From a virus (lineage: Duplodnaviria > Caudoviricetes): a stretch of 42,807 nt of DNA. Every line of letters begins with the position of its first letter. Position 1 is the first letter of the stretch. Both the position numbers and the translations under genes were made by a program. This document shows positions 1,481 through 41,078 of the stretch, in pieces. The stretch spans positions 1 to 42,807 of the IMG/VR virus record IMGVR_UViG_3300034349_000021; one strand, 5' to 3'. The notes below the pieces were generated by a model, which worked only from the letters and a program-made list of their open reading frames with translations, had not been told where the DNA came from and ran no database searches.

Positions 1481-2556
1481 CAGGCAACAACCGCCGCTGT
1501 AAGATCAAGATCCGAGACTACGCCGCTGGACTTCTCCTGATAACAGATCAGGCCGAGGTCAGCAGTAACCATGTAGTGCTCAGAGAGGCCGGTTTTGGCA
1601 AGCGGCTTGGTTTCGTAACCCTGAAGCGTGACGTTGGCCCAGTACTCGGGGTCGATGATCAGTAGGTCGCAGGAATTACCGGTACCAGTAGCACCATCGT
1701 AAGGGACGTACTGACGATCAGGCACGAGCTCGATGGTGATGCCGAAATCGGTAGCCAGAATGTTGACAGCGCCGTATGCCGTCATCCCATCACCCATGCT
1801 TTCACCTTGGGGCTTGTTGCTGGTGATAGTGGCGATGCGAGCGGAAGACGTGAAATGGAAGTTACTGTACTTCCGAATCATCGACGGGTGACTGATTGCT
1901 TTGCTTGGATTGCCGCCGGCAGTGAAGATCTTCTCTAGAAGATCCTTGACACGCGCGTCTGAAAGGGCACGAATTGCGCCCGCGACAGGCTTCACCTTGG
2001 GGTAGCCGGCTTTGGCGGTGTTATCAGACCACTGCGGGGCAGCGCCGATGCTGTCACGATTGGTCATGAGCCAGCATGGAGCACCGGCCATCTTGGCTGG
2101 GCCGGTGGTAGCAGCATTTGCCACAATGCCGTCACCGGGCTGAGCGGCCTGCGGATACAGCTTGATTGCCTCTTCGTCGCGCCGCAACTCCTTCTGAATC
2201 ATGGCGACCTGAAAGAGCAACTCGTCCTGACGTGCGATGGTATCGACGTTGGAGGCACGCTCGGAAACAGCCACGTTGTCCAGCAAGATCTGGCAATAGC
2301 CGCCAAACCGCTTGCCGGGATCACCCTTTTTGGCGGTGACGTCTTGGCCGTCGACAGCAGCATTATTGACGTTACGGGCACGAAGAGGCCGTTCGACAAA
2401 CTCCTTGTAAGGGTTGTCGGTCGACTCATTGCCGATCATGTCGATGAAAGGCCGCTCGACAGGATCGATGTTAAAAAGTTGATCCATTACATCCTCATGG
2501 ATCATGGGCCCAACTTTCGTTGAAGCAAGATCGACTGCGTTAGTATTGAGACCCAT
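1480..2556 (-). CDS. Major capsid protein (DUF5309-like)
   Basis: 358 aa; ED..D.LFNIDP..RPF, QI....AVS, QKELRRD.E, TDFG...LVPDR, LAKTG motifs; follows scaffold; strong codon bias; SD GAGG. Confidence 0.88.
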   Translation of the reverse strand: MGLNTNAVDLASTKVGPMIHEDVMDQLFNIDPVERPFIDMIGNESTDNPYKEFVERPLRARNVNNAAVDGQDVTAKKGDPGKRFGGYCQILLDNVAVSERASNVDTIARQDELLFQVAMIQKELRRDEEAIKLYPQAAQPGDGIVANAATTGPAKMAGAPCWLMTNRDSIGAAPQWSDNTAKAGYPKVKPVAGAIRALSDARVKDLLEKIFTAGGNPSKAISHPSMIRKYSNFHFTSSARIATITSNKPQGESMGDGMTAYGAVNILATDFGITIELVPDRQYVPYDGATGTGNSCDLLIIDPEYWANVTLQGYETKPLAKTGLSEHYMVTADLGLICYQEKSSGVVSDLDLTAAVVA

Positions 2557-2623
2557 CTCTAGCTACCTCAAATGTGTTGAATTGCCACCTTACTCTCGTA
2601 AGTAATTAACGCCACTCTCGTAG

Positions 2624-3604
2624 CTAGTTTTTGCCGAAGATACCAGCAGCGTCGGCCACAGCGCGAAATGCAGCGCGTTTGTCGGTCTCCAGCCTGCTGG
2701 TCTTGGCCTGGGTTACTGCAGTAGCAGCTTTCTCTCTCGAGACAGCTGAACCGCTATGCGAACCAACAGTAAGCCGCTTGATCGACTTACTCTTAATGCC
2801 GTCTTTCGTTGACTTGACAGCCATTTGATGATCATCCCACTGTTGCGCTTTGTAAAAAAGGCTGGCCACGCGAGCGTCGTAGAGCTTGTCCACTTCATCA
2901 GGAGTAATGCCCTGGCCGAGTAAATAGCTCTTGAGCTTTGCCTTAATTTCAGGTCCGCGCTCTTTGTCAGCAAAAGCAGGGATGCGCTCAGCAAGCTGCC
3001 GTTGCTGATCTTGCATATATTCAGACAACGCGCGTTCTTGGAACTGCTGCGCTTGGAAGCTAGCTGCATTCAACTCGTCGGTTGCCTGGCCATAAAGACC
3101 TTGCAGCCTGAGCAAATCGGTTTGCGCCGCAACGAGGCCAGCTGTATCACCAGCCTGCGACAGCTCTTCAATACGTGAATAGACGCCGCTGTAGGCCTGC
3201 TTGATTGTTTCGACCTTTTGATTGGCAGCGGCTACGGCCTGAGAGATTGGCTTTGCCACTTGCTCCTGAAAGACTGAGGCATTCTTAAGTTTAGCCTCTT
3301 GCTCTTGAAGCGCCTTCTCTTTGACCGACAGTTCTTCTTGCACTCGCTTGTGCTTTTGAAGGTAGTCCTTGACTTCGGAGAAGGTGTACTCATCTCCAGT
3401 GTCAAGCTTGAGCTTGAGGTTGTAGAAGTCTTCAGGAGCTACGCCGAGTATATCAGGCAGCTCATTAAAGTATTGTACAGCCTCACCTTCGTCTTCCGGT
3501 TGGTCCTCATCCTCGACTACCGTCTCCTCCCCAAGGGTGGCGGCCGCCGCGTCTTCTGCCGGAAGTTGTTCTCTAAACGCCGTGATCTGGTCTAATGTTG
3601 GCAC
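2624..3604 (-). CDS. Scaffolding protein
   Basis: 326 aa, acidic N-terminus, coiled-coil Q/A/E-rich body, located between portal and capsid. Confidence 0.75.
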   Translation of the reverse strand: MPTLDQITAFREQLPAEDAAAATLGEETVVEDEDQPEDEGEAVQYFNELPDILGVAPEDFYNLKLKLDTGDEYTFSEVKDYLQKHKRVQEELSVKEKALQEQEAKLKNASVFQEQVAKPISQAVAAANQKVETIKQAYSGVYSRIEELSQAGDTAGLVAAQTDLLRLQGLYGQATDELNAASFQAQQFQERALSEYMQDQQRQLAERIPAFADKERGPEIKAKLKSYLLGQGITPDEVDKLYDARVASLFYKAQQWDDHQMAVKSTKDGIKSKSIKRLTVGSHSGSAVSREKAATAVTQAKTSRLETDKRAAFRAVADAAGIFGKN

Positions 3605-3831
3605 TATAGTTCCTCTCGGATCCTGTTGATAACTAGGGTCACTGCCGCACGCCTATCTCTAAGCTTGGCAAGTTCCTCTAGTGTTGTGTCATCATGAAAT
3701 GCAAGAAACATTTCAGAGGTCAATACTTCTTGTAGTTCGTCCCATAGCCCGCGTTCTTCGGCTTGCCGAATAGCCTCAAGTGCCTGATTACTGAAGTGAA
3801 TCCGGTACTTGTTCTGCGTCGTATTTGGCAT
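3604..3831 (-). CDS. Small hypothetical head-module protein
   Basis: 75-aa helical ORF overlapping the portal end and coupled to the scaffold start; exact start uncertain. Confidence 0.55.
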   Translation of the reverse strand: MPNTTQNKYRIHFSNQALEAIRQAEERGLWDELQEVLTSEMFLAFHDDTTLEELAKLRDRRAAVTLVINRIREEL

Positions 3832-5809
3832 TTAATTCTACCAGTTGCAGTCTTAGTGCGTCATAGTCTTTTGCCAACTTGTCGTACTCGAGTTGCTGGT
3901 CAAACTTGAGACTCAGCTGCTCCATCTGGTTCTTGAGCATTTGAACATTGGCGCTGCCTTCAGCCTTAATCTGCTCTACTCGTGGCAGCAGCTCCATGTT
4001 CATCATCTGAACCTGCATGTCTTGCTGGTTCTTCTGCTGCGCAGATTGCGTTCTGGCTTGCGCAGCTTGCTGGCCTTCTGGACTGGCCGGGTCAGTGTAA
4101 TAGGTATGCGCGTTAGGTACCATAAGCGCGTTAGCCCGCGCCACGAGCAGCCTGTACATTTTCTTCTCATCGACAAGGATACTACCTTGCTGCATCAGCT
4201 CTTTTTGTTCAGCTATGAGTTGGGTATAGGATTGGGCCTGCCTCAATCGATCACCCATGGTTAAGCCCAGGGCAACAGAAACATGCTGCCGCTCGGGCCA
4301 ACTAGAGGGCGTGGCGGTTATCCAGTTGCCTTGCACTTTAGCCGCAATAGGCTGACTGAAATTAGTGCGTAGATTGTAGTGGATCTTCGTATAGATCTGG
4401 CGAAGCAGCGTCTCAGCCAGCACCTTAGCCATTAAGCTGTTAAGCTGCTCCATAGCAGACATGATGCGCTCAAGGCCGTGCGCAGTATCTCCACCAATTA
4501 GAACCTCCTCGCTGGCCTTATCGACAGCCGAGCCACCACTTTCCTTTCGCCGCTGATCCATCAAAGTGAGAAGTTGGAATACCTCACTTGGGAAGGGATT
4601 AGTGGGGATAGGCACTACACCATTTGGCGTGGTCATTCTAACCATACCGCCAAAGATAGAGTCTTTGACATCGTTGATGTTTACTTGATTCCCGACGATA
4701 CCAAGGCGTCCACGCACTGCGGTCTCGCCGGCAGTTAGCAGCTGGCGCACAACCTTGGTCTTAATGTCTTGAACTTGCTTGATCTTGTCAAACAAGCTAA
4801 TACCAGGAACCCGATGCGGATAGATAAACGGGACTCCAATGCAGTACGGCTGGCTGGCAGCAGGTTCGTCTTCAAGAATAGTGGGTGTGCCAGTAAGATT
4901 ACCAGCCAGCACTATTCTTCTACGCTCCGCTATGCCATCGTCGTCTTCATCAAGCAGCATGTAGCAAAAAGCCACATGTACCATCTTGGTGTCAGTTAGC
5001 GCGTATTCACGTTGACGATGCGGCTTTGCGGTTGAGTTGTAGCTGTAATCAGGCAGCCCAGCTACTAGTTCTTTGTCGTAACCAAGTTGTACAAGCTCAG
5101 AACGAGAAAGCAAACGCTCACGAGCAACAAAGCGGGCCGAGTCAAGGTCTAGCTCCTCATGATCTGGATTGACAAACAGCTCATTAGGCGGGAATGCATC
5201 AATATAAAGATGCTTCTGAATCTTTGTCTGGCGCAGTGTAGCAGAGAATGAATCCTTATCGAGCAACTCGGCCATCTTGGCGCTATCGATCTCTGCGTCG
5301 TCGTCAAACGCCTTACCGTCAAGCTCGATAATCTCTGTATCTTCAGTTTTTAAGCTGACCAGTATATCAATTGTAGCGTCTTCTACTTTAAGGTAAGAAA
5401 CAGCAGCCTTTTCGTAGGTATTAACCTCTACGACACCGATACGCTGTAATAGTGCATTTTTACAAGCTGTAGTAAGCTGAATAAAGCCGTTAGATTGCTG
5501 AATAAAAATGTCGTTTACTAACTGGGTCTCTATCCTTACCTGCTCCTCGTCTTCTGGCCCCATAGGGTTAAACGAGACTGGAGTCTCAGAAGCAAAAGCA
5601 GGCATAATGTCAGCCAAAGTATGCTCAACAGCATTAGCGACGTCAGGGCTGACAATATCTTGGAAATATTCCTGCACATCCTTGTCGAGAATCTTCGGTT
5701 CAACACCATCGAAGTAAGCATAAGCATCGCGACTATTTTTTGAAAGTAACTGTTCAGAATACTCACGTGCTTTAGTGAGCTCTTTAACCACGTCCTTGAC
5801 TATATCCAT
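3788..5809 (-). CDS. Portal protein
   Basis: 673 aa directly after TerL; VSPDV..AVE....DIM..F, P.GPEDE, NALLQR.G, D.DDDGIAE motifs; Q-rich C-terminal barrel as in P22-like portals. Confidence 0.88.
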   Translation of the reverse strand: MDIVKDVVKELTKAREYSEQLLSKNSRDAYAYFDGVEPKILDKDVQEYFQDIVSPDVANAVEHTLADIMPAFASETPVSFNPMGPEDEEQVRIETQLVNDIFIQQSNGFIQLTTACKNALLQRIGVVEVNTYEKAAVSYLKVEDATIDILVSLKTEDTEIIELDGKAFDDDAEIDSAKMAELLDKDSFSATLRQTKIQKHLYIDAFPPNELFVNPDHEELDLDSARFVARERLLSRSELVQLGYDKELVAGLPDYSYNSTAKPHRQREYALTDTKMVHVAFCYMLLDEDDDGIAERRRIVLAGNLTGTPTILEDEPAASQPYCIGVPFIYPHRVPGISLFDKIKQVQDIKTKVVRQLLTAGETAVRGRLGIVGNQVNINDVKDSIFGGMVRMTTPNGVVPIPTNPFPSEVFQLLTLMDQRRKESGGSAVDKASEEVLIGGDTAHGLERIMSAMEQLNSLMAKVLAETLLRQIYTKIHYNLRTNFSQPIAAKVQGNWITATPSSWPERQHVSVALGLTMGDRLRQAQSYTQLIAEQKELMQQGSILVDEKKMYRLLVARANALMVPNAHTYYTDPASPEGQQAAQARTQSAQQKNQQDMQVQMMNMELLPRVEQIKAEGSANVQMLKNQMEQLSLKFDQQLEYDKLAKDYDALRLQLVELNAKYDAEQVPDSLQ

Positions 5810-5810
5810 T

Positions 5811-7196
5811 TTAGTTATACGCCCTGTTCACGGACTTATCCCAATCTTTAGTGTAGCCGAGCAACTCGTAGCCCAAACCAGCACCCATTGCGGCGTATTG
5901 ACCAGCTTCACAAACGTGTGAGTACATTGTCTTGTCAGGAACGTCTTTGAATCGCTCGTCACCAACTACTTGCACGCGACGAAGCTTATAACCACCGCCG
6001 TAACCTTTGCGAGTATAGTGGCAGTTAGGCGACACAATAAAGGCTGGTTGACCGTTAAAAGTCATACGCATCATCAAAGATGCAACAGTCTCGCGCCTAA
6101 TCTCCCAGTCGTTGGTCGGAGCCGGCTGCGCAAATATCCCAAGGGCGGCTAGAACCATGAAGGGAGTCTGCTCATCGGTCTGTACTCTCTCAGATCCCGC
6201 TGGGTCGCCCCAGATTTCCATCAAATAGCCGCTGTACTTGTTACGTAAATGTATGCCTAACGCCTCACCAAACCGTATAGCACCCATTTCCTCGCTGACT
6301 AGCTCATCAATACAGCGTAGCTGACCATTGATAAACTGATTGATAGACGCAGCAGGCGTTAACCCAAAGTCTAGGCCAATAATTAACGGCTCGTCTTCAA
6401 CAGGTTCAATAACCTGCTTAGAGACGTGCACGTCGTCGTTAAACTCAGCGTAGACAGGTTTGCCGTCGCTCACGAAGCCAAACTTCCCATGGACAAAGAC
6501 TTTAACCCATTCTGCTGTTTGACCGACGCTAAGCTGTTCATAGTATGTCTTCGGCAGGTTCTTTCGGTTTTCTGCTTCTGGGCTAAGACCAGACGGCTGA
6601 TGGAAAAATGCCCAGCCTTGGGGCAGCTTTTCAACAAACGTCTTATGGATATAGTGATCCACATCTGGTGGGTTAGTGTCCATAATGACACAATAACGAT
6701 AATCCTCTACTCTATCGCGTGTAGGAAAGCGACCGACGCGGCCCAACAGCATATTCAGCACAGCTCGCGGCACCTCCTTTGCCTCGTTTATAAAAGCCCC
6801 AGTTAGCTCTAGCGAAAGCAGCTTGCGAACATCCTGTGGCTTGTCAAGTGCACGAAACAGCACCTCTAGTTCAACAGTGCTGCCGTCACCAGGCGCAAAC
6901 TGCATTACGAAGCGCAGTTCTTGTTTATTCCAGTAGCCTAGTTCTTGAGGGATCCACTCAAAGAACGTGCGGATAGTGGTGTCCTTTAACTCACCATACG
7001 TATTACGTACAACCAGCCAGCGACTTGGCCTAATGCCACTCTTGTCCATTGGCATTTGCAGCGCGCAGCGTAGTATCTCTACAATACACGCTACAGACTT
7101 GCCAGAACCAATTGGCCCTAAGATCAAGCGTACAAACGCCATGCTCCTATGGAACGCGCTTGTAGTCTTAGCGGCCTTGTAGGTCCTATTTAACAT
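5811..7196 (-). CDS. terL: Terminase large subunit
   Basis: Walker A GPIGSGKS, Walker B AFINEAKE, DTNPP coupling motif, nuclease IGLDFG; ATG at 7196 preferred over 7223. Confidence 0.93.
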   Translation of the reverse strand: MLNRTYKAAKTTSAFHRSMAFVRLILGPIGSGKSVACIVEILRCALQMPMDKSGIRPSRWLVVRNTYGELKDTTIRTFFEWIPQELGYWNKQELRFVMQFAPGDGSTVELEVLFRALDKPQDVRKLLSLELTGAFINEAKEVPRAVLNMLLGRVGRFPTRDRVEDYRYCVIMDTNPPDVDHYIHKTFVEKLPQGWAFFHQPSGLSPEAENRKNLPKTYYEQLSVGQTAEWVKVFVHGKFGFVSDGKPVYAEFNDDVHVSKQVIEPVEDEPLIIGLDFGLTPAASINQFINGQLRCIDELVSEEMGAIRFGEALGIHLRNKYSGYLMEIWGDPAGSERVQTDEQTPFMVLAALGIFAQPAPTNDWEIRRETVASLMMRMTFNGQPAFIVSPNCHYTRKGYGGGYKLRRVQVVGDERFKDVPDKTMYSHVCEAGQYAAMGAGLGYELLGYTKDWDKSVNRAYN

Positions 7197-7203
7197 AAGT
7201 GGC

Positions 7204-7346
7204 GGGCGCCCACAAACCGACAAGACAGTCCGAGACAGGATTGATAGTCAATTTGCAGGCACCCATAGAAAAGGTGGGGCTCCACACAGCTGTGTCAACC
7301 ACCCAGTCGGAGGTCACCAAAAGGATGCACACCTGCAGGAGCCCCA
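7204..7346 (-). ncRNA. Structured intergenic RNA (two domains) upstream of terL
   Basis: 18-bp stem 7204-7221/7247-7264 pairs fully only on the minus strand (several G-U pairs); 9-bp stem 7275-7283/7338-7346. Confidence 0.45.
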
Positions 7347-7350
7347 TTAT

Positions 7351-8274
7351 TCAGTACTTGGGCAACGGGTTCAAAATGCCCATCTTTGTCAACATTTTTT
7401 CAAGAAACGAGTCTTCAATATCGGCTTGCGACATATTGCCTTTCTCTACTTGATCTTCAAACCAAGCTTGGGAATACAGCGCTGGTTGCAGCTTACGCAT
7501 TTGTGGCACATCCTTATACCCTTCACGATAAAAGGTAGCCATGTCATCTTCAGACCCGAGATGACCGCTGACTACGTCGTTATAAATTGGCACATCAGAC
7601 AGCTCTTTGCCAGGAGGCAACCTAGTGTTGATCGCAGCCAAATCGGCCAGCATTTCATGGGAGCTAGGCACACCCTCACCGAGTAGCGAGAAATACCTAG
7701 AAACCGGCCTATTAAGGTCAATCTTCATATGATCGCCTTGGCCGACCATACGCCGCTCATGACTAGGCAACGCCCGCTCAAACGGCAAGTTGACCTGAGC
7801 GTTTGCGTTGTCTCTGCGGCTCCAGTGCGACATTTCATGAGGCAGTAGCAAGTCAGCCGTTGTTTCATCAACGCTGCCAGTAGGCTGTAAGTACACGCCT
7901 GGCTGCGCGTCAAACGGCGACAGGCCATGACCAGTAACTGTCAACCCCTTAACGTAGTTGTTGATGTCGCCGCTTTTCAGCTGGCTATTGACGCCCTTCT
8001 CAAACTCAGGCTTAAGGCCAGGTACGCCAGTGGTTAGCAAGCCACCGTGCGACGAGAAGTACAGCTGCGGGTAGTCAGCAGCTTTAGAGCCGTTTAGACG
8101 CTTGAGATGATCGGCTATTCCTGGCACATCCTTGATATCATAGTGCTCCGAGAAGAACTTGGCCAGCTGAGGACCTACACCAGAATCTAGAAGCTGCTGA
8201 CCTACCTGATTCAGACCGGTAGGCGCCTGTCTGAAAACAGAGTCTTTGGGCAGCAAGTCCAGTAAACCAGCCAT
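7351..8274 (-). CDS. Hypothetical protein with HEXXH zincin-like metallopeptidase motif
   Basis: 307 aa; LLPHEMSHW plus downstream HEMLA glutamate; sits between TerS and TerL. Confidence 0.6.
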   Translation of the reverse strand: MAGLLDLLPKDSVFRQAPTGLNQVGQQLLDSGVGPQLAKFFSEHYDIKDVPGIADHLKRLNGSKAADYPQLYFSSHGGLLTTGVPGLKPEFEKGVNSQLKSGDINNYVKGLTVTGHGLSPFDAQPGVYLQPTGSVDETTADLLLPHEMSHWSRRDNANAQVNLPFERALPSHERRMVGQGDHMKIDLNRPVSRYFSLLGEGVPSSHEMLADLAAINTRLPPGKELSDVPIYNDVVSGHLGSEDDMATFYREGYKDVPQMRKLQPALYSQAWFEDQVEKGNMSQADIEDSFLEKMLTKMGILNPLPKY

Positions 8275-9295: not shown

Positions 9296-9313
9296 AATTC
9301 GCATTTGCGAATT
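9296..9313. promoter_or_regulatory. AATTCGC-N4-GCGAATT palindrome (operator-like)
   Basis: One of five perfect TTCGC-N4-GCGAA sites. Confidence 0.65.
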
Positions 9314-9600
9314 TTTTTCTGGGACTTACGACGGCTAGTATTGTGTAGATAAATGTGTGTCTGTCTATCCGACAGAGACTTTAGGGAGGTAAAAATTTTT
9401 CAACTTTGCCCTTATCGATGGATGAAAAAGGAGGTTTTACGGATACGCCACCCCGCACACGTTTTGTGTACGCCGGCAGAGGGGGGCAGCATTCAAGGCG
9501 TGTATACCAAGCACACGCTCTGTGGAATTGATCTAATCAGTATGTGTGCACACTGATTGCGTATTCCTATTCAATATGTGTATGCGTGTGCAGACAGTAT

Positions 9601-9670
9601 GTGTATTAATAAATATAATAATTAAGATTGATATATCTAATTGTACCTCAGGCATAATTATATATATAAT
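9601..9670 (+). promoter_or_regulatory. Early promoter with four-box element
   Basis: GTGTATT 9601, TTGTAC, TATAAT at 9665 (+64). Confidence 0.75.
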
Positions 9671-9799: not shown

Positions 9800-10132
9800 A
9801 TGTCTAAGTATGATACAGCAGAAGCAGTACTGGCCTCTAGTGAGACCAAGTTTGCTAAGAAAGCTCAACTGTGTGCCAACTTTGGCTACACAAGCAAAAG
9901 AGCTGATGAGCTCTTGGCAACTGACCAACCAGTTGTTAGAACTGACTTTGTCAAGCTGGTGGCCTTTGTGAGAGCCAACAAGACTGTCGCTCGTCGCAAG
10001 TTGGCCAAGATGTGTGAAGAGCAAGGCTTGTGCAAAGAGTCAAGTGCATTTCACTACCTCTCCTTCCAAAACTATGTTGATGAGTATGTCAAGCAAGAAA
10101 TTGCTGACATGAAGCCTGCTACTAAGAAGTAG
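9800..10132 (+). CDS. First early protein; paralog of the C-terminal half of the 17361-18089 HTH-repeat protein
   Basis: 110 aa from ATG 9800; LV..VRANK...R..L.K...EQ....E...EY..QE shared with the 17361-18089 product. Confidence 0.75.
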   Translation: MSKYDTAEAVLASSETKFAKKAQLCANFGYTSKRADELLATDQPVVRTDFVKLVAFVRANKTVARRKLAKMCEEQGLCKESSAFHYLSFQNYVDEYVKQEIADMKPATKK

Positions 10133-10468: not shown

Positions 10469-10574
10469 ATTACTCACACAAAGCGCGCCATGACCTTTTT
10501 GGTAGCGACTCTAGTTGAAGGCGCCATGAGGCGCGCCATGCCGACTCTGGTGGCGACTCTAGCGAGCACAGAAC

Positions 10575-10644
10575 GTGTATCAATTTTATTAATACTAAAT
10601 ATTGACATATTCAATTGTACTTAATATATATATCATGCTATAAT
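10575..10644 (+). promoter_or_regulatory. Early promoter with four-box element
   Basis: GTGTATC 10575, ATCA-N7-TAAT-N7-ATTG-N7-CAAT, TG-n-TATAAT at 10639 (+64). Confidence 0.8.
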
Positions 10645-11814: not shown

Positions 11815-12186
11815 TCACCGCTTAGACAACCAAGCCCTTAACCAAAAGGCAAACGGTGCCGACCCCATAGCTAGGTACCCAGGCGCCCCGACCACTAGCA
11901 GATACGCAGGTACACAGAATGTCCACGCTTCCCTATTGCGTCTATACATCAGTATCGGTAGCTCGCCCTTAGCATCAGCCGCACGGCATACCTGTTTCCA
12001 CCAACTATTCACATTGAGCGTTTCATGCCTTTTAACCTCCACACAGATACCCGGCAATCCGTCTATATCTTCACCGCCATCACGCGCCTGGCCCAATGTG
12101 CGACTCATTTCAAAGCCAGCAAGCTCGCTCAACAGTGCAGCGGCTTCGCGTTCACCGTTCTGGCCCTTCGTGCGTATGTTCACCAT
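11815..12186 (-). CDS. Holliday junction resolvase (PD-(D/E)XK, Hjc-like)
   Basis: RTKGQNGERE...GGEDI...CVEVKR...WW.Q; SD GGGAGG before ATG 12186. Confidence 0.8.
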   Translation of the reverse strand: MVNIRTKGQNGEREAAALLSELAGFEMSRTLGQARDGGEDIDGLPGICVEVKRHETLNVNSWWKQVCRAADAKGELPILMYRRNREAWTFCVPAYLLVVGAPGYLAMGSAPFAFWLRAWLSKR

Positions 12187-12238
12187 TCCCAAACCTCCCA
12201 AGGGGTGTAAGGCCGCCAATCAAATAACGGCAAAAGAC

Positions 12239-12535
12239 TTCGCAAATCGCGATGAGTGGAACGTATGGAAAAAAGGATAAGAAAAAGAGTGAAAGAATAT
12301 ATTATAAGTTATTGATTTTTATATATTTTTTTTCTTTTAACTCCCTCTCTCACCCCAATCACTCTCCGGGGGTATTCGGGGGGGCTCGCTCACGGGCCCC
12401 CGGGTGAGGGTGATAGGTGGTTGGAAATTCCTTAAAAATCAATAAGTTACAAAAAAAATCAAGGACTTAGGATCACTCTAGCCACTCGCGTGAAACTCCT
12501 TTTTTCTAAAAAGATAAGAAAATCAATCACTTAGA
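12239..12535. other. Putative replication origin: four IHF consensus sites around a GC-rich core
   Basis: WATCAA-N4-TTR at 12305-12317(-), 12437-12449, 12457-12469 and 12521-12533; A/T tracts; just upstream of the primase-helicase. Confidence 0.5.
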
Positions 12536-12601
12536 TTACCGAATACCCTTTGCGGCCTTTAACCTTCCCAGGCACTCACCTTGGGAGAGGGATTAAGCTA
12601 T

Positions 12602-12672
12602 ATTATAGCGCCGTTAATCTGTATCTGTATATTTGATTAGATCAATGTATAATATATTACAGCCTAATACAC
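12602..12672 (-). promoter_or_regulatory. Leftward promoter with four-box element
   Basis: GTGTATT at 12672, TATAAT 65 nt downstream. Confidence 0.65.
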
Positions 12673-12677
12673 AAATT

Positions 12678-12747
12678 GAGTATTAGTATTTTAAATGCTT
12701 CAAGTTAATGAATTCAACTGTTAATCTAACAGAAAGTGAGGTATAAT
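12678..12747 (+). promoter_or_regulatory. Rightward promoter with four-box element (back-to-back with the previous one)
   Basis: GAGTATT 12678, TATAAT at 12742 (+64). Confidence 0.65.
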
Positions 12748-12806
12748 GTGCGTTCATCTGTTGAAAAGGCCTTGGCGGCCCAACTGGTATCCTATAACGG
12801 TGAAGT

Positions 12807-13070
12807 ATGAGTAAAAAAGAGCTAGAAGACAATTCGCGTTTGCGAATTTTTCCTGAGATTAGCCGAGGTATTGAGATGCATTTTAAACACTGTAAGCAAT
12901 GTGGTAGGCTGCTGCCTGATACTAGCGAGTATTTCGATCATGTGGTAGGTGGTGGCGGAGTGCGCAAGACTGTGGCTTCGTGTAAGAAGTGTTATGGTGC
13001 AGCGCGCAAAGAGCGTAGGTTGGTGGCTAAGATCAACAAGATGCTGGAGAAAGCTAGTGCAGCAGGCTAA
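12807..13070 (+). CDS. Small zinc-finger protein
   Basis: KHCKQC..LP...EYF......CKKC; the start may be the later ATG after SD GAGGT. Confidence 0.6.
   Translation: MSKKELEDNSRLRIFPEISRGIEMHFKHCKQCGRLLPDTSEYFDHVVGGGGVRKTVASCKKCYGAARKERRLVAKINKMLEKASAAG
12831..12848. promoter_or_regulatory. AATTCGC-N4-GCGAATT palindrome
   Basis: Perfect extended copy about 85 nt downstream of the 12742 -10 box. Confidence 0.6.
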
Positions 13071-15207
13071 AGACTTTCTCACAGCGCTAGACCCTGATGC
13101 AACCAAGTGGTTGTTTGTAGCCATAAACAAAGGCAGAGTAACAACCCTGTACAATACCTGGAGTGCTGCTAGAGACGGGTTGCTCTCGCTCAATAAGCAG
13201 CACTGCGACATTTATGTCACTGTCAACGAAACTAAGGGCAATAAGCGCGAACTCACTGACATAATCAGAGCGCGCGCAATCTGGCAGGAAGATGACCGTA
13301 ACTCAGAGGCACCTGATGGCGCTGGCATAGTGGTCGAGACTTCCAAAGAGCACTACCATCGCTACTGGCTGACGTCAACTGAAGAGCTAGACCGCTGGCA
13401 GCATACCCAAGATTGGATGGTTAAGCGTTGGCACAGCGATCCCAAGGCGAAAGACCTGTCGAGGGTATTGCGTGTGCCAGGATTCCTGAACTGGAAGCGC
13501 GACGAGCCTGAAGAAGTGAAGCTACTCCATTGCTCAGGTAAGCGCTGGGAGTTTGATGAGCTCTATGCACACCTTGGGGTTAGTGGGAAGCGGGATGCTG
13601 GGCCCGAAGGCAACTCCACTATCGATAAGTTAACACAAGAAATCTTACGGGGTGAGCATCTCCACGGGCCAATCCGTACGCTGATGCTAGTCTATGCTAA
13701 CAAAGGCTTAGACAAAGTCGTTAACAGAAACATCTGCACTGGCTTAATCGGTTTGTGCCCTGATGACGCAAAGAGGCATAAAGCGTTACACGACCTAGAA
13801 GGTATGCTTAAGGCTACCTACGACAAAGTAAATGAAGAGCAAGAGATCCACGGCCCGATTGTCTTCAAGAAACAAGATGAGATATTTCTTGAATGGCCGC
13901 CTGGGTTAATGGGTGAGTTAGCAAGAGCGGCTAACGACTTTGCTGTAGTGCCTAACAAGATCAGATCTATCATGACTGCGTTAGGCTTAATAGCGGGTAT
14001 AGCTGGCCGCAGATACAATATCTCGAGAGCTGGCTTAAACATCTATGTCAACCTGATGGCCACCACTGGTTCTGGGAAAGACGCGATACGCAACTTCTGC
14101 TTCCAAGTACTCTCAGACAATGCCATCCTTGGGAATACTGGGATAACCTTCCTTGGGTCACAGAATTATACGGGCCCCAAACCTTTGTGGCGTGACCTCA
14201 TTAAAAAGCCCTCAATGCTGGCTATCTTCACAGAAGCTGGCTTGCTTTATCAGACAGACTCAGGCGATAAGGTGGGCTTTCTGCGTGTATTGCTTGAGGT
14301 GTATGGCGCAAGCGGGAAGAAAGGCCACATGAGTCCAGAAGCGTATTCAAATGAAGCAGACAATCTGCCTATGCTGCGTGCGCCATCGCTAAGCGTGATC
14401 AATGAGGCAACTGAGATCTCGTTCAAAAAAGTGTTGCAAAAGCGTGAATCGCTAGAAACTGGCGATCTGCCTAGAAGCTGGGCATTCATATGCAAAGGGG
14501 CGCGGCCATATGATAACCCAAACCACAGCCAGCTTGCGCTGTCCGAAACTTTGTCTGACAGACTGCGTGACCTCTCCACAGACTGCTTCTCGCAACAAAC
14601 AGCAACAGTACCAGAAGTAGTTGAGATAGCTGTGCCAGAGTGTTATACAGCATACTCACATAAGCTTGTAGACGAGCAAAATCGCTTGCAAGCAGAAGGC
14701 GACAACCGCTACCTAATGTACACACGCGCTGGCCTGAAAGTGCTAAAGGTGGCTGGCATTATAGCAGCACTTGAAGGTAGTCTTAAGATTACGCCTGAAG
14801 TATGGGAATGGAGCACTAAGCTGCTGGATTACGAAATGGCTGGTATTGCCCCACTACTAAGCAACGACTCAGCAATGGATGATGTCAGAGACGCTGCGCT
14901 CAGAGTACTGGCCAAGCTTATAGCCGGTGGTTATCACGGTCCTAATGTTGAAGTAGACATAGAGCTACGCAGTAAGAACAGATTCAAGGAGTCCCCTTTC
15001 AAACAAGTGTGTGAGCGTGTCTCGCTTATTAAGTCATTCGCTGATCCACAGCACCACAGCAACCCTAAATCAGGTGCAAAAAAGATCCTCATCCATCTAC
15101 TAGACGAAGGGTATATCAAAAAGATAGACCACTTAAGTAAAGGCAGAACTGCAGTATATGAACTAACAAAGTTAGCAAGAGATCGTATCAACCAAATCGT
15201 TGAGTAA
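13057..15207 (+). CDS. RepB-type primase fused to a P-loop helicase domain
   Basis: IYVTVN..RAIW.EDD..VETS..HYHRYW..DP..KD.SRVLRVPGF primase motifs; ATTGSGKD Walker A; GTG 13057 with SD GGAGA. Confidence 0.85.
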   Translation: MQQAKDFLTALDPDATKWLFVAINKGRVTTLYNTWSAARDGLLSLNKQHCDIYVTVNETKGNKRELTDIIRARAIWQEDDRNSEAPDGAGIVVETSKEHYHRYWLTSTEELDRWQHTQDWMVKRWHSDPKAKDLSRVLRVPGFLNWKRDEPEEVKLLHCSGKRWEFDELYAHLGVSGKRDAGPEGNSTIDKLTQEILRGEHLHGPIRTLMLVYANKGLDKVVNRNICTGLIGLCPDDAKRHKALHDLEGMLKATYDKVNEEQEIHGPIVFKKQDEIFLEWPPGLMGELARAANDFAVVPNKIRSIMTALGLIAGIAGRRYNISRAGLNIYVNLMATTGSGKDAIRNFCFQVLSDNAILGNTGITFLGSQNYTGPKPLWRDLIKKPSMLAIFTEAGLLYQTDSGDKVGFLRVLLEVYGASGKKGHMSPEAYSNEADNLPMLRAPSLSVINEATEISFKKVLQKRESLETGDLPRSWAFICKGARPYDNPNHSQLALSETLSDRLRDLSTDCFSQQTATVPEVVEIAVPECYTAYSHKLVDEQNRLQAEGDNRYLMYTRAGLKVLKVAGIIAALEGSLKITPEVWEWSTKLLDYEMAGIAPLLSNDSAMDDVRDAALRVLAKLIAGGYHGPNVEVDIELRSKNRFKESPFKQVCERVSLIKSFADPQHHSNPKSGAKKILIHLLDEGYIKKIDHLSKGRTAVYELTKLARDRINQIVE

Positions 15208-15226
15208 GGCCCACCTTGGGAAAGGG

Positions 15227-27263: not shown

Positions 27264-27265
27264 CT

Positions 27266-27621: not shown

Positions 27622-27676
27622 TGACGATAAGTATATCGCCATATTCTAACAAACAACCCGTGTGCTCTAGCAAGGT

Positions 27677-27704
27677 AAAAAAGAAGCCCCTGGGGGGAGG
27701 GGCT
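27677..27704 (-). terminator. Rho-independent terminator of the late module
   Basis: Minus strand AGCCCCT-CCCCCC-AGGGGCT followed by TCTTTTTT. Confidence 0.8.
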
Positions 27705-27733
27705 AAAACCAGGTCATGGCGCGAAGGAGGAAA

Positions 27734-29530
27734 CTAGTCGTTGCGGTCTAGTATAGCCGGGCCGAGTAGACCACCGCCAAGGATGGCGCGCTCTCTTGCA
27801 CTGGCATTATACAAATTGTTCATTCCGCCAGTCAAATAACTCTGATACCAAAATGGCGCGGTAATAGCCCTGCCAGCGTTAAGCAAGTTGTGCACAATAC
27901 CTACTTTTGGTATAATGTCTGTTGTTCTTCCTAAGTCTTTAGATACCGCATTAGTCATAATAAACGAGCCGCGGAAACTCTTCTGCTGGTTCTGCAAAAA
28001 CCTTGCCGCTCGTGCAGCCTCTGATTCTGGTGCAATACGCAAAAACGCACCAGGTGGCACATCATCACTAGCCTGTACAGTCCTATCCCTTAGTAACCGC
28101 GTAGCAATCCTATTGCGCTCTGTTGCCGCCGCGCGCTCAACCAACAATTCTGGAGTCAACCCCCTTGGGGTAGGGATGGCAGTGATCAACCCTTCGTAAT
28201 AGTCAGCCAGCGGCATGCGGTTAGCAGCCAGCGCACGGTCTCTTGCATCAGTAAGCACGCTACGTGCAGCCGTAGCTTGATCAGCCCAATTAGGCACCAC
28301 ACGCCCACCAGTGTCCAAGCTGCGCCATAGGTCAGCGTGTTGGTTAGCGCCTGGCGGTAACTGCCGTCGCCCAGTAGCAGCTAAGTAACCGGCACGCAGC
28401 TGCGCAGGAATAGTCTGGTCTAGCGTATACGGAGCGGGCCGCACACTATCATTAATCTCGTGCACTCGTTGTCCTGACGTGTCACGTGCGCCATGCAGCG
28501 ATTCAACGTCTAGTTTACCGGTGGGTGAGGTTATGCCAAGCTCGTTTGCCACTTCAATATTAAAGCGACTTTGATTATTAGCCATTAAGTCATCAAATGC
28601 ACCGGCCGTCTTAGGGTTAGTTCTGACTGCGTTGTCAAGCATCTGTTCTTTAGTGTTACCAGATACAAGCCCGGGGTTAACCCAGTACCCTTTCTGGTGC
28701 ATCTCTTCCGTCAGCTGCCTGATGTTGGGCGGCTGCCGAGAAGGCGCCTTCATACCAGATGGCCCAGGTAAAAATGTCGCTACGCCACTAACCGCACCAC
28801 CGAGAAAACCCAGCCCGCCACCAACAGCCGCGCCCTTCAGCGCACTTCCGCCTTCATCATAAGACTTCAACCCACCAGTAACCGCTCCGGCTCCAGCAGC
28901 CGCTGCAATAGGCAAGTTACCGGCCAACGGTACGCCGCCCCCAAGGGTGCCTCCGAGACTCCCAAGGGTGTTGCTTGTAGGTCGGATGCCGGCCGCCCTC
29001 CCGCCTCTAAGCATGGCGTACTCCAGCGCAGCTTGAGCCGCAATGTTAGTACCAATCTCAGCGGTATTAACAGCCCACGGGTTGGTCTGCTTATAGCTTG
29101 CAGCATCTACAGCGGCTTTACGAGAGTCGATAATACTATCAGGCACAAAAGGCGAGACAGCGTGCCGCAAGCCGGCAGACAGCGCCGCCCCTGTATCGGG
29201 CTCAGGCTTGTAAGTCATTGCGCCCGACATCTGGCCGGTTTTCTCAACAAGCTGCGTCAAGTCACCGAGAGCCACCTCGTCACCGCTAGACGCGCGTGAA
29301 GCCAAGTCAGCCACAGTCAATCCAGTCTTCTGACCAAACTGAGCCATGATATTATCCATGGCCAACGCCGACGCCGAGCGACCGCCAGAGTTAAGAGCCT
29401 TACCAAGCTTTAGAAAAGAACTGACATCCAATGGCTCAACAGGAGCATCAGCCTTGACCAAGCCAGCCGCGCGCATGTCCAAGTGGCCATTGGCCCGAAG
29501 CATCTCGATGATTTCTGCGTCAGCAGCCAT
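27734..29530 (-). CDS. Internal virion / DNA ejection protein
   Basis: 598 aa, Ala/Gly-rich membrane-like segments, last gene of the ejection cluster. Confidence 0.7.
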   Translation of the reverse strand: MAADAEIIEMLRANGHLDMRAAGLVKADAPVEPLDVSSFLKLGKALNSGGRSASALAMDNIMAQFGQKTGLTVADLASRASSGDEVALGDLTQLVEKTGQMSGAMTYKPEPDTGAALSAGLRHAVSPFVPDSIIDSRKAAVDAASYKQTNPWAVNTAEIGTNIAAQAALEYAMLRGGRAAGIRPTSNTLGSLGGTLGGGVPLAGNLPIAAAAGAGAVTGGLKSYDEGGSALKGAAVGGGLGFLGGAVSGVATFLPGPSGMKAPSRQPPNIRQLTEEMHQKGYWVNPGLVSGNTKEQMLDNAVRTNPKTAGAFDDLMANNQSRFNIEVANELGITSPTGKLDVESLHGARDTSGQRVHEINDSVRPAPYTLDQTIPAQLRAGYLAATGRRQLPPGANQHADLWRSLDTGGRVVPNWADQATAARSVLTDARDRALAANRMPLADYYEGLITAIPTPRGLTPELLVERAAATERNRIATRLLRDRTVQASDDVPPGAFLRIAPESEAARAARFLQNQQKSFRGSFIMTNAVSKDLGRTTDIIPKVGIVHNLLNAGRAITAPFWYQSYLTGGMNNLYNASARERAILGGGLLGPAILDRND

Positions 29531-29533
29531 ACG

Positions 29534-31156
29534 TTACTCCGGAAGCAAGTCTGTTCTGCCGGCCTGCTTCATTAACTCATTCATGCGTTTGCGAGCGGCA
29601 AGCTGAGGCGCAGTGAGCTTAGCGGCAGGCACGTCACGATCAGAAGCCACCTGTGCGTCTGGCACCGAGTACTGCGCAGGTTGTGGGGCAGCTGCCGCAG
29701 ACTGACCCCCCTGGGGTCCTGTGAAGTCAGGTGGTACTGGCGGCTCTGGTCGGCGTCCAGCTATCCATTCAATACGCTCTCCAAGGTATTTAGCGTTGGC
29801 ACGAGACACTTGAAGATTATTCTTAAATACATCAGTTTCTTGGCCGGCGACAGGTAGCGTGGCCTTGATACGGTCATGCTCTTGTTCTGATACAGCCGCG
29901 CCGCTTATAAGCTGAGCCATTTCTTGCGCTATCTTATTTGATAGAGTAAGCGAAGCAAGCTCATGGTCAGATAGGTCTTTTACCACGTCTCCATTGCCGA
30001 GCATGTTGCTAATCCAGTTAGTCGCATTGATGCCGGCATTGACGCTCATACCTAAAAGATCGGTCTTAGTACGCCATTCTTTAACTTTACCACCAAGACC
30101 GGACAAGTCTGTGTCTGACGACATTTTTTCGAGTTGATCAAGTGAGTTAATAATAGTGGCGCGCTGGCCAGCTTTAACCATCTCTTCACTTGTAGGTTTA
30201 AGCTCAGATGAGCCTAACGGGCGTTTGACAGTATAGCCGACAGGCGAGTTAGGATCGGGATACATAGCCCCTTTTTCGTACTCACCAGGCTTCGCCCAGC
30301 CTAAGCTGCCGGGAGGCGCCGGCAGCACAGCTTGCTGATCCTTGCCAACATTGACTTGTGTCTTAGGCTGCGTCAGAATCTTTAGCATCATCTGCTGGTA
30401 CTCAGGCGTGCCTGGGGTAAGGCCAGCGTTAATCAGCTGCTTGTCTAATGAGGTAAGATCGGTCCCTTTAGCCTTAATAGCAGCAACCATCAACTCCTTC
30501 TGGAACTGGTCCTTAGCAGCACGCTGCTGAAGCATGTAAGGGGCAAGCTCAGGCCTGCCAAGCTGCATCAGCAGATCGCCAACACCGCCCGTGCCTCCAA
30601 GCGCTTGACCGATAGTGGAGCCCCAGTCGGGGCCAGTGGGCATTTGCACAGGCTGTTGCGGCGACATAGGAGGTGGCGGCATTTGTAAAGGCATGGCTGG
30701 TACGGGCATCCCAAGGTTGGAGGTATCGCCGGCCATCCTTGCGTCAACCGGTTGCTGCGCGCGTTGGCTGCCTTTGATACCATAAAAGTTATTGCCCGGG
30801 GCATGCTTTCCCCAGCCAGTCTCTAGCGCAGACTGCCTTGCGCCAAGCTCTGCCAGATGATCGGGTGCGCCCTTGGCCAGTAGCTCCGCCTTACGTGTGG
30901 CCATAAAAGCTTGCTGCTCAGGAGTACCTGCCTGCATGCTTGCCAGCTTGGCGCCATAGTTTGGGTCTGTGGCATAACCGGACTTAGCCACCGCTGCAAT
31001 AGCCTCGCTCAAGCTGGTGGAGCCGCGCACCCCTTGATAACGCTTGTTGCTAAGCAGCTTGAGGTAGTCATCGGAGGAGTCTGCAGGGCTTAAATACTGC
31101 CTGAAAGAGTCATCGACAGTTTGCATACGACCATTGATGTACTCTTGAGTTTTCAT
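29534..31156 (-). CDS. Ejection protein with N-terminal circularly permuted GH73 (FlgJ-like) muramidase
   Basis: T.EY.NG, FR.Y.S, GYATDPNY occur before QSALETGWG and NNFYGIKG; Pro/Gln linker; helical C-terminus. Confidence 0.8.
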   Translation of the reverse strand: MKTQEYINGRMQTVDDSFRQYLSPADSSDDYLKLLSNKRYQGVRGSTSLSEAIAAVAKSGYATDPNYGAKLASMQAGTPEQQAFMATRKAELLAKGAPDHLAELGARQSALETGWGKHAPGNNFYGIKGSQRAQQPVDARMAGDTSNLGMPVPAMPLQMPPPPMSPQQPVQMPTGPDWGSTIGQALGGTGGVGDLLMQLGRPELAPYMLQQRAAKDQFQKELMVAAIKAKGTDLTSLDKQLINAGLTPGTPEYQQMMLKILTQPKTQVNVGKDQQAVLPAPPGSLGWAKPGEYEKGAMYPDPNSPVGYTVKRPLGSSELKPTSEEMVKAGQRATIINSLDQLEKMSSDTDLSGLGGKVKEWRTKTDLLGMSVNAGINATNWISNMLGNGDVVKDLSDHELASLTLSNKIAQEMAQLISGAAVSEQEHDRIKATLPVAGQETDVFKNNLQVSRANAKYLGERIEWIAGRRPEPPVPPDFTGPQGGQSAAAAPQPAQYSVPDAQVASDRDVPAAKLTAPQLAARKRMNELMKQAGRTDLLPE

Positions 31157-31159
31157 GGC

Positions 31160-31537
31160 TTAGCCCTGGCTGTAGCCGTAGTAAGCTGGGACTGACTGGT
31201 TAAGTCCAAACGACTGTTGCTGCATTTGCTGTTGCTGTTGCAGCCACCGTTGGTAAGCCAGCTCTTCTTCTGACGGGCCTTGCTTTTGCTGCGGTTGTGT
31301 AAGCCGTGCGTAAGCATCGGGATCTGATTGCTGCAGAATAGCCAACCCAGTATTGGGTGCAGCCTTGCCCCACCAAGGTGCTGCAAACGCACCTTGCATC
31401 CAGTCAGGAGCAGCCGTAGAAATGTTAGTAGTTGGCACGTTGTAGCCAAGCCCATTCCAGCTCTGCTGCTGTGGCTGCTGCTGGTTATAGTTACCGAGCT
31501 GCTGCTTGTACTGCTGAAGTGTGTCTAAGATGCCCAT
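31160..31537 (-). CDS. Gln-rich small virion/ejection protein
   Basis: 125 aa, Q-rich, within the ejection cluster. Confidence 0.6.
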   Translation of the reverse strand: MGILDTLQQYKQQLGNYNQQQPQQQSWNGLGYNVPTTNISTAAPDWMQGAFAAPWWGKAAPNTGLAILQQSDPDAYARLTQPQQKQGPSEEELAYQRWLQQQQQMQQQSFGLNQSVPAYYGYSQG

Positions 31538-31539
31538 GA

Positions 31540-32691
31540 TTATTTAGCCGCGGTAGTTGCAGGAGTACGATACTTCTGCCATGCGTCAGCCAGTAAGCCG
31601 CCTACTTGTATGCCAGTGTTCAACCCAGCACCTGCGCCATACAGGCCAGCCTGCTGCTGCGTCATGTAATTGGGATTAGGCGCTGTACCAGTGCTAGTCT
31701 GCGTACCGTAGGGTTGGTACGCGCTAGCCATATTGGTGGCCATCTGGATACGTTGCTGCGGCTCTTGGAACATCCAGTTGTATCGCGAGATCTGATCTTG
31801 CAGGGCTGCGTTCTGGTAGGCCTCTACGGTCTGACCGCCTAGCATGTTAGCTGCTGCAGCGTTGCCTTGTGCAGTTGCACCTGTCTGCATGTAGCCGCCT
31901 GCTTGACCTTGCAAAGTGGCGGCATTGCCGAGTTGCGCGCCAGCCTGACCCATTGCTTGACCAGGCATAGTCAGGTTGTTAAGCATATTACCGGTTTGGT
32001 TTAACGCGCCCTGCTGTGCATTAAGCCCCTGACCGTAAGCGTTCAGCATGGTAGATGCGTTTGTATTGGCAAGCTGCTGTGAGGCTCGCTCCATACCTTG
32101 TGCCTGGGCAATGCCTTGCCGGCTACTCCCAAGGGCGTTAACTTGCTGTGCGCCCTGATTAATAGCTGGCAGCCAGTCTTCTTTAAACGCTTGGCCCACT
32201 TGCTGACGGTTAGCCGCTAGCTGCTGCTGAACGTAAGGGTTGTTAGCCACATCAGCAGCATTGCTAAGCATCCCGTAGTTTTGCTGCTGCTGCCCTAGGT
32301 AGCCGCCCATCTGATCAGCGGACTGGGCATAAGCATCAGCGCTAGTCTGATAGTATGGAACACCAGAATTAGCGGTCTTAGCCGCCTGTTGATAATATGG
32401 TACAGATTGGTTAAGCAACCCCGCTTGCTGCCCTAACTGAGCTACCCCTTGCTGCGTCATCCCACTTGGGGAGACGTAAGTCTGCCCCGGGTAGTACGGC
32501 TGGGGCGATTGCATCAAGTTCTGCGTCTGCGCTCCGGCGTAGTTGAGGAACGGCTGCGCAGCAGGGTTGATTGATGCTTGCTGTGTCTGGGTAGTCTCGT
32601 TAGTAGGAGACACGCTTTTGGCCGCCTTCTTTGCAGATTGGCTTGCCATGTAGGCGCTAACCAAACCTGCGCCGGCTACTATCCAAGGCAT
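31540..32691 (-). CDS. DNA ejection (pilot) protein, P22 gp7-like position
   Basis: 383 aa, Q/A/G-rich; MPWIVAGAGLVSA N-terminus; P.AQP.L, NPY, GSSRQGIAQ motifs. Confidence 0.75.
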   Translation of the reverse strand: MPWIVAGAGLVSAYMASQSAKKAAKSVSPTNETTQTQQASINPAAQPFLNYAGAQTQNLMQSPQPYYPGQTYVSPSGMTQQGVAQLGQQAGLLNQSVPYYQQAAKTANSGVPYYQTSADAYAQSADQMGGYLGQQQQNYGMLSNAADVANNPYVQQQLAANRQQVGQAFKEDWLPAINQGAQQVNALGSSRQGIAQAQGMERASQQLANTNASTMLNAYGQGLNAQQGALNQTGNMLNNLTMPGQAMGQAGAQLGNAATLQGQAGGYMQTGATAQGNAAAANMLGGQTVEAYQNAALQDQISRYNWMFQEPQQRIQMATNMASAYQPYGTQTSTGTAPNPNYMTQQQAGLYGAGAGLNTGIQVGGLLADAWQKYRTPATTAAK

Positions 32692-40144: not shown

Positions 40145-40146
40145 AG

Positions 40147-40647
40147 TTAAACTCTAACAGCCCGCATTTGAGCGCTGTATATTGTCAAGGTAGCTGCACC
40201 AGAAGCCTTAACTGCCAAGGCAAAGGTGTTGCCCTCGACTAACTCGCCTACTCCAGTAATAACAAACTGGGAGAACTTGTTAGCTAGCACATCGACTTTT
40301 GCTTTGAACGGAGTAATGGCGCCATTTTTAGACAGCGCTAACTCAAGCGCTCCAGCGCCAGGACTGGAAAAGCTCACGACAACGTCAATGCTATATAACC
40401 CATCAGCTCCAGAGCCCACGGTAACAATACCACCCGCAGCTGACAAGCCTTTGGTACCAGCTGCTCCGTTAAACGCGGTGAACGGACCCCATGCCGTAGT
40501 AACAGCCTGAGTAAGATCGTTACCGTAGAGCGTTCCACCAACGCCTACCAGTGACTCCAGCAAATCACGTAGTGATGCTGGAGTAATGGCACGGGTCTGG
40601 TTATCGACAAACATCTCCGCGATAACCGCTTGCGTTTTGATGCTCAC
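40147..40647 (-). CDS. Virion structural protein
   Basis: 166 aa; F.DN....ITP..LRD N-terminus followed by a beta-rich (C1q-like) body. Confidence 0.65.
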   Translation of the reverse strand: MSIKTQAVIAEMFVDNQTRAITPASLRDLLESLVGVGGTLYGNDLTQAVTTAWGPFTAFNGAAGTKGLSAAGGIVTVGSGADGLYSIDVVVSFSSPGAGALELALSKNGAITPFKAKVDVLANKFSQFVITGVGELVEGNTFALAVKASGAATLTIYSAQMRAVRV

Positions 40648-41078
40648 TGGAAGCCTCCGCTAAAACCGTTAGAGAAAGACCCAGCAAACCTGCGGTTTGC
40701 TTGCCCAAGGAAGACATGACCCCAGTTTGGATGGTCTATTGTAGCAGGAGTAACGCCAGTGACTTCGCCTTCTTCGTCTACTACGCTGTGCTCTTTCATC
40801 AGCAACAAAATCTCTGACGGATCAGTTGGCCACACCTCTTGGGAGTCTATCCCGGTCCCCTGTTCCCAAGCATAGGCCACGGGGTTACCAAGGGCGCGTA
40901 TCAACGCCCCTATCTCACTAATAACACCCACGACATTATATACTGACTGTGCCCAATAACCAGTTACTGCGCTTCTATACGCAGAGTGCCACGTTTCATA
41001 CGGGTCGCCTTCTTGGGGGGTTATAGCGGCCCAGTCATCTGACTCAACCACAATCCACACATCAAGGAGTGGGCTCAC
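40644..41078 (-). CDS. Hypothetical virion-module protein
   Basis: 144 aa, coupled at both ends; ends FAGSFSNGFSGGF. Confidence 0.6.
   Translation of the reverse strand: MSPLLDVWIVVESDDWAAITPQEGDPYETWHSAYRSAVTGYWAQSVYNVVGVISEIGALIRALGNPVAYAWEQGTGIDSQEVWPTDPSEILLLMKEHSVVDEEGEVTGVTPATIDHPNWGHVFLGQANRRFAGSFSNGFSGGFQ

Follow-up and report, generated by a model that had tools for sequence, protein, structure and literature searches.

pRN1 is a known case of sequence-specific priming by an archaeo-eukaryotic primase (AEP). Such priming is likewise described for the NrS-1 primase–polymerase, which, in the accessible part of its account, primes at 5′-TTTGGTTA-3′ and at GTGG/GTGA, the helix bundle binding the site (PMC8718748), and for RepB′ (PMC8567376). 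The ssiA and ssiB sites of RSF1010 are 40-nt hairpins, one per strand, and in the available portions of two reports RepB′ makes no contact with the CCGAAGG loop (PMC8567376, PMC13037366). The AgaPH PriCT–DUF3987 protein is a 5′→3′ helicase, according to the part of the account that is available (PMC11724360). Here we describe a 42,807-nt stretch of viral DNA (IMG/VR record IMGVR_UViG_3300034349_000021, positions 1–42,807; hereafter the window) in which the word CCTTGGG, reading CCCAAGG on the opposite strand, recurs throughout the genome. On balance, we think that CCTTGGG probably marks lagging-strand priming sites read by the phage's own primase–helicase, which is encoded at 12949–15207.

As a virus record the window is complete, its two ends overlapping by 127 bp, and it corresponds to a 42.7-kb podophage with an SU10-type head. 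CCCAAGG/CCTTGGG is its top 7-mer (z 16), with 45 exact copies (25 CCCAAGG on the + strand and 20 on the − strand) against an order-2 Markov expectation of 5.8. A previous sequence-only reading of the window had counted about 44 copies by hand and expected 5–6 from composition, and all 19 positions that it had named were found again. Forty copies lie inside the 61 called genes and five are intergenic (9154, 12197, 12579, 15214 and 18096). Under three synonymous-codon nulls (genome-wide, per gene and next-base-aware, 300 shuffles for each), the 40 coding copies compared with 5.0–5.6 expected and a shuffle maximum of 15, an excess about 8 times what codon use explains. The coding copies were found in both orientations relative to transcription (26 versus 14) and in all six word/frame classes (21, 6, 5, 3, 3 and 2), so that a Leu-Gly/Pro-Lys codon preference fails as an explanation; the mixture of orientations, frames and intergenic copies noted earlier is thereby borne out.

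The flanks of the word are also biased. When synonymous codons were resampled around 41 coding sites, taken from an automatic open reading frame (ORF) set and not from the 61-gene set, position +9 was G in 28 sites (16.4 expected) and C in none (4.6 expected, p 0.006), +9/+10 read GG in 17 (8.7 expected), and −1 was a pyrimidine in 35 (30.4 expected, p 0.007). The pyrimidine before and NNG(G) after that the sequence-only reading had pointed to therefore hold, giving an extended consensus Y-CCCAAGG-NN-GG whose opposite strand reads 5′-CCNNCCTTGGGR-3′. Of the variants, CCCAAGTG exceeds expectation mildly (6 versus 2.0), and each one-letter variant of CCCAAGG occurs in 1–15 copies. With CCCAAGG masked, no second prominent dispersed word was found in the window. 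Contigs from four public runs, which carry the label peat metagenome, match window positions 12000–31999 with only 2 differences and represent the same strain throughout.

Copies of the word are evenly spaced on one strand. The 25 CCTTGGG copies on the − strand (span 3530–40710) start at 3530, 6138, 9154, 11219, 12197, 13441, 16743, 18096, 20821, 21783, 23125, 24740, 26570, 27427, 28940, 28961, 30710, 32128, 32861, 33861, 34405, 35839, 38058, 38073 and 40704, with a median gap of 1426, a largest gap of 3302 and a coefficient of variation (CV) of gaps of 0.56 versus 1.15 in an opportunity-aware null (p<0.001, 2000 draws). The 20 copies on the + strand (span 1805–39184) start at 1805, 1995, 6616, 12579, 13572, 14127, 14151, 15214, 16808, 18258, 18269, 21025, 21812, 21866, 22448, 23855, 25314, 26688, 28163 and 39178 and are not evenly spaced; the 11-kb gap between 28163 and 39178 is partly filled by CACTTGGG/CTCTTGGG variants. 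A word chosen post hoc, CTTGGGR, gave CVs of 0.76 and 0.55 on the two strands (label-permutation p 0.006).

Relatives of the window phage carry the same core word. CTTGGG is enriched 4–5-fold (z 6–11) in five genomes of 40–49% GC, with observed and expected counts of 39 and 9.7 in G002, 41 and 8.7 in G003, 48 and 12.8 in G004, 53 and 12.1 in G005, and 21 and 5.5 in L027. CTTGG[AG] is enriched in L031/L042, and enrichment is weak in G001 and L198; CTTGGT in G026, G028, G030 and G033 was only about 2-fold enriched and irregular, and was not counted as support. The sequence-only reading had named a lack of preferential site conservation in relatives as refuting, and technically this is the outcome: in aligned genes, where identity at four-fold sites is about 0.3 and synonymous divergence thus saturated, 9 window sites were shared with relatives versus 8.4 expected among common opportunities. 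As sharing is at chance level, what is conserved across relatives is the density of the word, while individual positions turn over.

The proposed reader, encoded on the + strand at 12949–15207 (PF16793, phrog_3022; this is the longest ORF, and the true start probably lies about 100 nt further in), appears to comprise a RepB′-type AEP domain, a helix bundle, a DUF3987 P-loop domain and a C-terminal winged helix. The AEP domain matches PF16793 (E 1.5e-9) and, by profile, 6zp9, 3h25 and 3h20. In structural comparisons of the predicted model, its closest relatives were S-2L PrimPol (Z 17.9) and RSF1010 RepB′ (Z 17.5 against 3h25, root-mean-square deviation (rmsd) 3.1 over 172 aligned residues). 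The catalytic residues are conserved: QEDD and DP..D..R are invariant in 5 aligned homologues and align with the DD/D/R residues of RepB′. The helix bundle has no Pfam match; the model places helices at residues 195–270 (pLDDT 72–87), and alignment with full RepB′ (3h20) extends to residue 273 and includes the bundle (Z 16.9, rmsd 11.2). DUF3987 reaches only E 0.046 on the protein itself and 1e-5 to 1e-13 on its homologues; by this homology the middle of the protein is assigned to DUF3987, the model being unreliable there (pLDDT <50, residues 268–537). The C terminus matches winged helices with Z up to 8.0.

The accessible accounts of the described systems allow a comparison. Like the window protein, NrS-1 combines an AEP domain, a helix bundle and a helicase, in that order, with a short asymmetric word, and CTTGGG shares TTGG with its site, from which the words of the siphophages described below differ by 1–3 letters; unlike the window protein, NrS-1 has a different catalytic-domain family and a different helicase type. 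The ssiA site of RSF1010 contains CCGAAGG, one letter from CCCAAGG, but the window has 45 copies and the core shared by its close relatives, CTTGGG, drops the last G of that comparison. A hairpin model suggested by this likeness (CCC-AA-GGG or CC-CAA-GG) was rejected, as the flanks show no covariation and the mean minimum free energy was −1.79 versus −2.07 for re-paired flanks (p 0.95). AgaPH resembles the window protein in linking a DUF3987 P-loop domain to an AEP; it differs in that its gene is separate and belongs to an integrative element, and the portion of that account available describes no genome-wide site.

Phages with a related primase–helicase carry other words. In the nearest cultured phages AGCGGA is enriched, with 81 copies versus 18.8 in Vibrio phage VA-RY-3 and 55 versus 12.5 in Cronobacter phage Ss1; it also occurs in G010, G019, G023/G024, G049 and L232. 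G046 and G047 carry CCGCGGA, G022 carries AAGCGGTA and L123 carries AAGGGGTT. TGTGG-[TGC]-[TC]-A (the TGTGGTTA, TCA and GCA forms) is enriched in 17 of 18 cultured siphophages with the helicase domain (z 10–21), and weakly in the remaining one, S0112; all seven siphophage primases scanned match PF22763, the Pfam family of the NrS-1 helix bundle. A Y-G-G core is present in all these lineage words except AAGGGGTT. Three E. coli phages (slur01, ChristophMerian and Shy) have three different words, indicating that the phage determines the word, and single words span hosts: AGCGGA occurs in Cronobacter and Vibrio phages, and TGTGGGCA in phages of alpha- and gammaproteobacteria. Together with the codon-independent excess, this supports the earlier claim of a selected genome-wide signal. 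As a separate observation, Sinorhizobium phage phiM5, whose genome encodes a Prim-Pol, contains 168 copies of CTGTCA/TGACAG versus 25 expected (z 28), on both strands and irregularly spaced.

Even spacing along each strand recurs in this group. In Ss1, VA-RY-3 and most siphophages, sites on each strand were more even than chance and than permuted strand labels; for Ss1, VA-RY-3 and five siphophages the per-strand median gaps were 0.7–4 kb, with strand-label permutation p of 0.000–0.015. This regularity is per strand and is not seen in the pooled set. In a blind screen that applied one procedure to 59 records of at least 18 kb (600 draws, p floor 0.002; shorter records and the near-duplicates G011, G023, VPv62, L031 and L027 were omitted), a word at z of at least 6 was found in 32 of the 35 records whose helicase domain is full and in 10 of the 22 that lack the domain. 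The enriched word was evenly spaced per strand in 19 of the 35, in neither of two records with a distant domain and in one of the 22, G046, whose primase is cut by the contig end. G025 was kept in the control group. Its z 17 word was rejected as evidence, being a 15-bp tandem repeat; about 50 copies of this unit form three arrays at 5278–7477 in what is a podophage with an NrS-1-type primase.

Across genomes, the word tracks the helix bundle of the primase in part. A link between the word and the type of catalytic domain fitted a first sample but broke down, and was refuted, when more genomes were sampled. Among 24 aligned primases, the helix-bundle subtype GEH[LV]HxP[IL]R was found in 7, every one of them from a CTTGG carrier; of the 8 CTTGG carriers that have a primase it fits 7, G005 being discordant, and the co-inherited genes fit equally well. 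If CCTTGGG is a priming site, the DUF3987 helicase might move 5′→3′ along the lagging-strand template, the helix bundle would recognise 5′-CCNNCCTTGGGR-3′ once that strand is unwound, and a primer initiated and made by the AEP domain would be extended by the family A DNA polymerase (25195–27063, +, PF00476). The alignment with the NrS-1 site and the pyrimidine-rich 5′ flank suggest that CCTTGGG, not CCCAAGG, would be the template strand. Chance 7-letter sites, at about 5 per genome, would be too rare, and selection at synonymous or near-neutral positions would keep one per ~1.5 kb; because the position of a priming site would be immaterial, sites would turn over. Their presence on both strands could reflect forks moving in both directions, possibly started by recombination, given the Sak4 protein and the exonuclease. 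Among the options raised by the sequence-only reading, a primase site is the best reading, whereas stoperators and Chi- or KOPS-like signals are unsupported.

Several observations weigh against this assignment. RepB′-type primases also accompany AAGCGGTA, CCGCGGA, a weak AGCGG and AAGGGGTT, and in G022, where a Cys/His-rich module stands in place of the helix bundle, an AGCGG word nevertheless persists. The primase, SF2 helicase, Sak4, SSB, Cas4 and HTH (helix-turn-helix) protein have largely parallel trees, and with replication genes co-inherited in this way co-occurrence cannot single out the primase. NrS-1, the proven case, lacks the array layout, its genome containing TTTGGTTA once and TGTGGTTA 4 times versus 0.6. 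G005 carries CTTGGG with irregular sites and a primase only 24–27% identical, whose helix bundle groups weakly (Shimodaira–Hasegawa (SH) support 83) with those of AGCGGA phages, and in the two-word phage G011/G043 the primase lies outside the assembled contigs. In the window, the + strand is irregular (CV 1.32, p 0.96), and the window itself fails the blind spacing screen (adjusted p 0.23); G003 alone passes among six CTTGG-type records, and the screened records are phylogenetically non-independent. Some of these genomes have further features. In NrS-1 (L117), the interval 17166–17440, just after the primase gene, holds 4 of the 10 TGGTTA copies, among them the only TTTGGTTA and two TGTGGTTA; no hexamer in that genome ranks above GTGGTT (28 versus 11.8). 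In G005, 12 of 17 AGCGGA copies crowd the last 3.5 kb (20138–23461) of a CTTGGG-type genome, an end segment possibly acquired from an AGCGGA-type phage. G011 and G043 represent a single phage in which two words are in genome-wide excess, AGCGGA with 55 copies versus 12 and CTTGGG with 41 versus 14.6.

Another part of the replication and recombination module could read the word, as the place where the DUF3987/winged-helix end of the same protein or the SF2 helicase is loaded or enters, or as a phage Chi-like signal for the SF2 helicase, Cas4-type exonuclease and Sak4, which we regard as unlikely. All six CTTGG carriers, including G005, fall in one clade of the SF2 tree (SH 99–100), the Y-G-G core is retained where the catalytic domain has been swapped and, in G022, even where the helix bundle has, and the motif-free controls lack these module genes as well as the primase. 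Nevertheless, SF2 homologues occur without a regular word in G013, G006 and V1022O, and the siphophage words almost equal the biochemically mapped NrS-1 primase sites; we also know of no sequence-specific reader of this kind in these protein families, which we count against the proposal. Decidedly unlikely, in our estimate, is a double-stranded binding site for the protein encoded at 17361–18089, or its paralogue at 9800, coating, protecting or regulating the genome. The 17361 protein, put forward by the sequence-only reading as a candidate reader, has four HTH-like repeats, which a 12-bp extended consensus could suit in pairs; the four-repeat clade (SH 98) consists of all seven CTTGG records having the protein plus L045, and in G005 the divergence of the HTH protein follows the word better than the primase does. 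Its candidacy is nevertheless weakened. The protein is acidic, as are all 34 homologues; a search with its profile found no homologue in 17 of the 18 siphophages that carry the motif (RcThunderbird, E 0.016); and G021 and G029 (40 kb read of each, same head, no primase–helicase) have distant family members (E 2e-11 and 6e-18) without a dispersed word. L045, of which there are only 9.8 kb, has a homologue at 32% identity and one CTTGGG versus 1.9, G043 has CTTGGG with only a shorter Ss1-type HTH protein, and the per-strand rather than pooled regularity in the phage group argues against a double-stranded site.

Chi, KOPS, stoperators and uptake sequences resemble the window word in being short, over-represented and found within genes; Chi and KOPS words are set by the host species, and stoperators are mostly intergenic, oriented with transcription and found in temperate phages with an immunity repressor. 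A word mimicking such a host signal (Chi, KOPS, an uptake sequence, or a nucleoid-protein or methyltransferase site) is very improbable, although we take AGCGG to resemble a Bacillus Chi. The window word lacks polarity and is set by phage lineage, as its relatives indicate: three words in three E. coli phages, and single words across hosts, do not fit a host-set signal. No methyltransferase family was found among the 61 ORFs in PHROGs and Pfam scans, in which many ORFs had no match at all, and this counts against a methylation site. The stoperator option is weakened by the 40 of 45 copies within genes, by their mixed orientation and by the lack of any integrase or immunity repressor match in the same scans of window ORFs. 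An origin in bias (codon, dicodon or mutational) or in an inherited repeat is largely refuted and hardly credible: x-Leu-Gly, the most frequent opportunity (85 of 158), does account for 21 of the 40 coding copies, but the eightfold excess under the three nulls, the six frames, the five intergenic copies, the non-homologous positions in relatives and the regular spacing on one strand all count against it.

The surrounding genome encodes a replication module that comprises, besides the primase–helicase and PolA, Sak4 annealing protein, SSB, Cas4-type exonuclease and SF2 helicase genes (18921–22952, +, assigned by PHROG/Pfam); a single-protein scan with PolA found no IMG/VR relatives. The primase cassette (12807–15207) is co-directional with the downstream replication genes, and the cassette in G002–G004 and the primase in G005 lie on the opposite strand; this appears to be an inversion in the window lineage. 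A candidate origin lies at 12300–12540, ahead of the primase gene, where AT-rich repeats in intergenic DNA, both direct and inverted (AAAAATCAATAAGTTA-like; D10, I1 and I4), surround a GC-rich core. The four three-helix repeats of the 17361 protein (+ strand) are seen in its predicted structure, which has only generic HTH, homeodomain and RecX matches (Z≤6.5, VIA). A Foldseek search found no match, and ESM Atlas matches, all below 0.8 and one titled 'D5 protein family', are leads only. Its isoelectric point (pI) is 5.0, those of the aligned homologues being 4.4–5.4. The gene at 9800–10132 (+) encodes a basic single-repeat paralogue (pI 9.1; E 1.5e-6 to residues 181–238). An AT-rich element of 35–49 nt, with the core YGTGTAT-N7-TTAATAC and a GTAT..ATAC dyad, occurs in four copies (9600–9648, 10574–10622, 15283–15331 and 17253–17287) upstream of + strand gene blocks and is a more natural operator or promoter candidate for the 9800 or 17361 HTH proteins. 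A hairpin-type element, AATTCGC...GCGAATT, has three intergenic copies (9296–9313, 12831–12851 and 17198–17213), and an Acb2/Tad1-type anti-defence protein is encoded at 20038–20358 (PF24729, E 5e-16).

Extending the priming reading to the wider group, we tentatively suggest that podophages and siphophages with the AEP–helix bundle–DUF3987 architecture may write a lineage-specific priming grid on both strands. Its words (CCTTGGG, AGCGGA, CCGCGGA and TGTGGNNA, with a Y-G-G core) might change with the helix bundle and not with the catalytic domain, and swaps might leave double-marked genomes, such as G043 and part of G005. No literature on genome-wide, evenly spaced priming arrays or on the CCTTGGG word was found in a search that lay largely outside subscription papers and supplements. 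What is new is a podophage branch with a RepB′-type domain, a different word and a swap panel that makes the code testable.

If CCTTGGG is a priming signal, it would provide a predicted site for a RepB′-type phage primase, whereas the characterised member of that family acts at a unique 40-nt hairpin, and the natural panel of helix-bundle variants with different words would make the AEP recognition code directly testable. The coding sequence of these phages would be shaped by an Okazaki-priming spacing rule, which would be relevant to recoding and engineering, as the cultured Ss1, VA-RY-3, Queuovirinae and Septimatrevirus carry the layout. If the grid reading also holds, primase specificity could be read from genome sequence alone.

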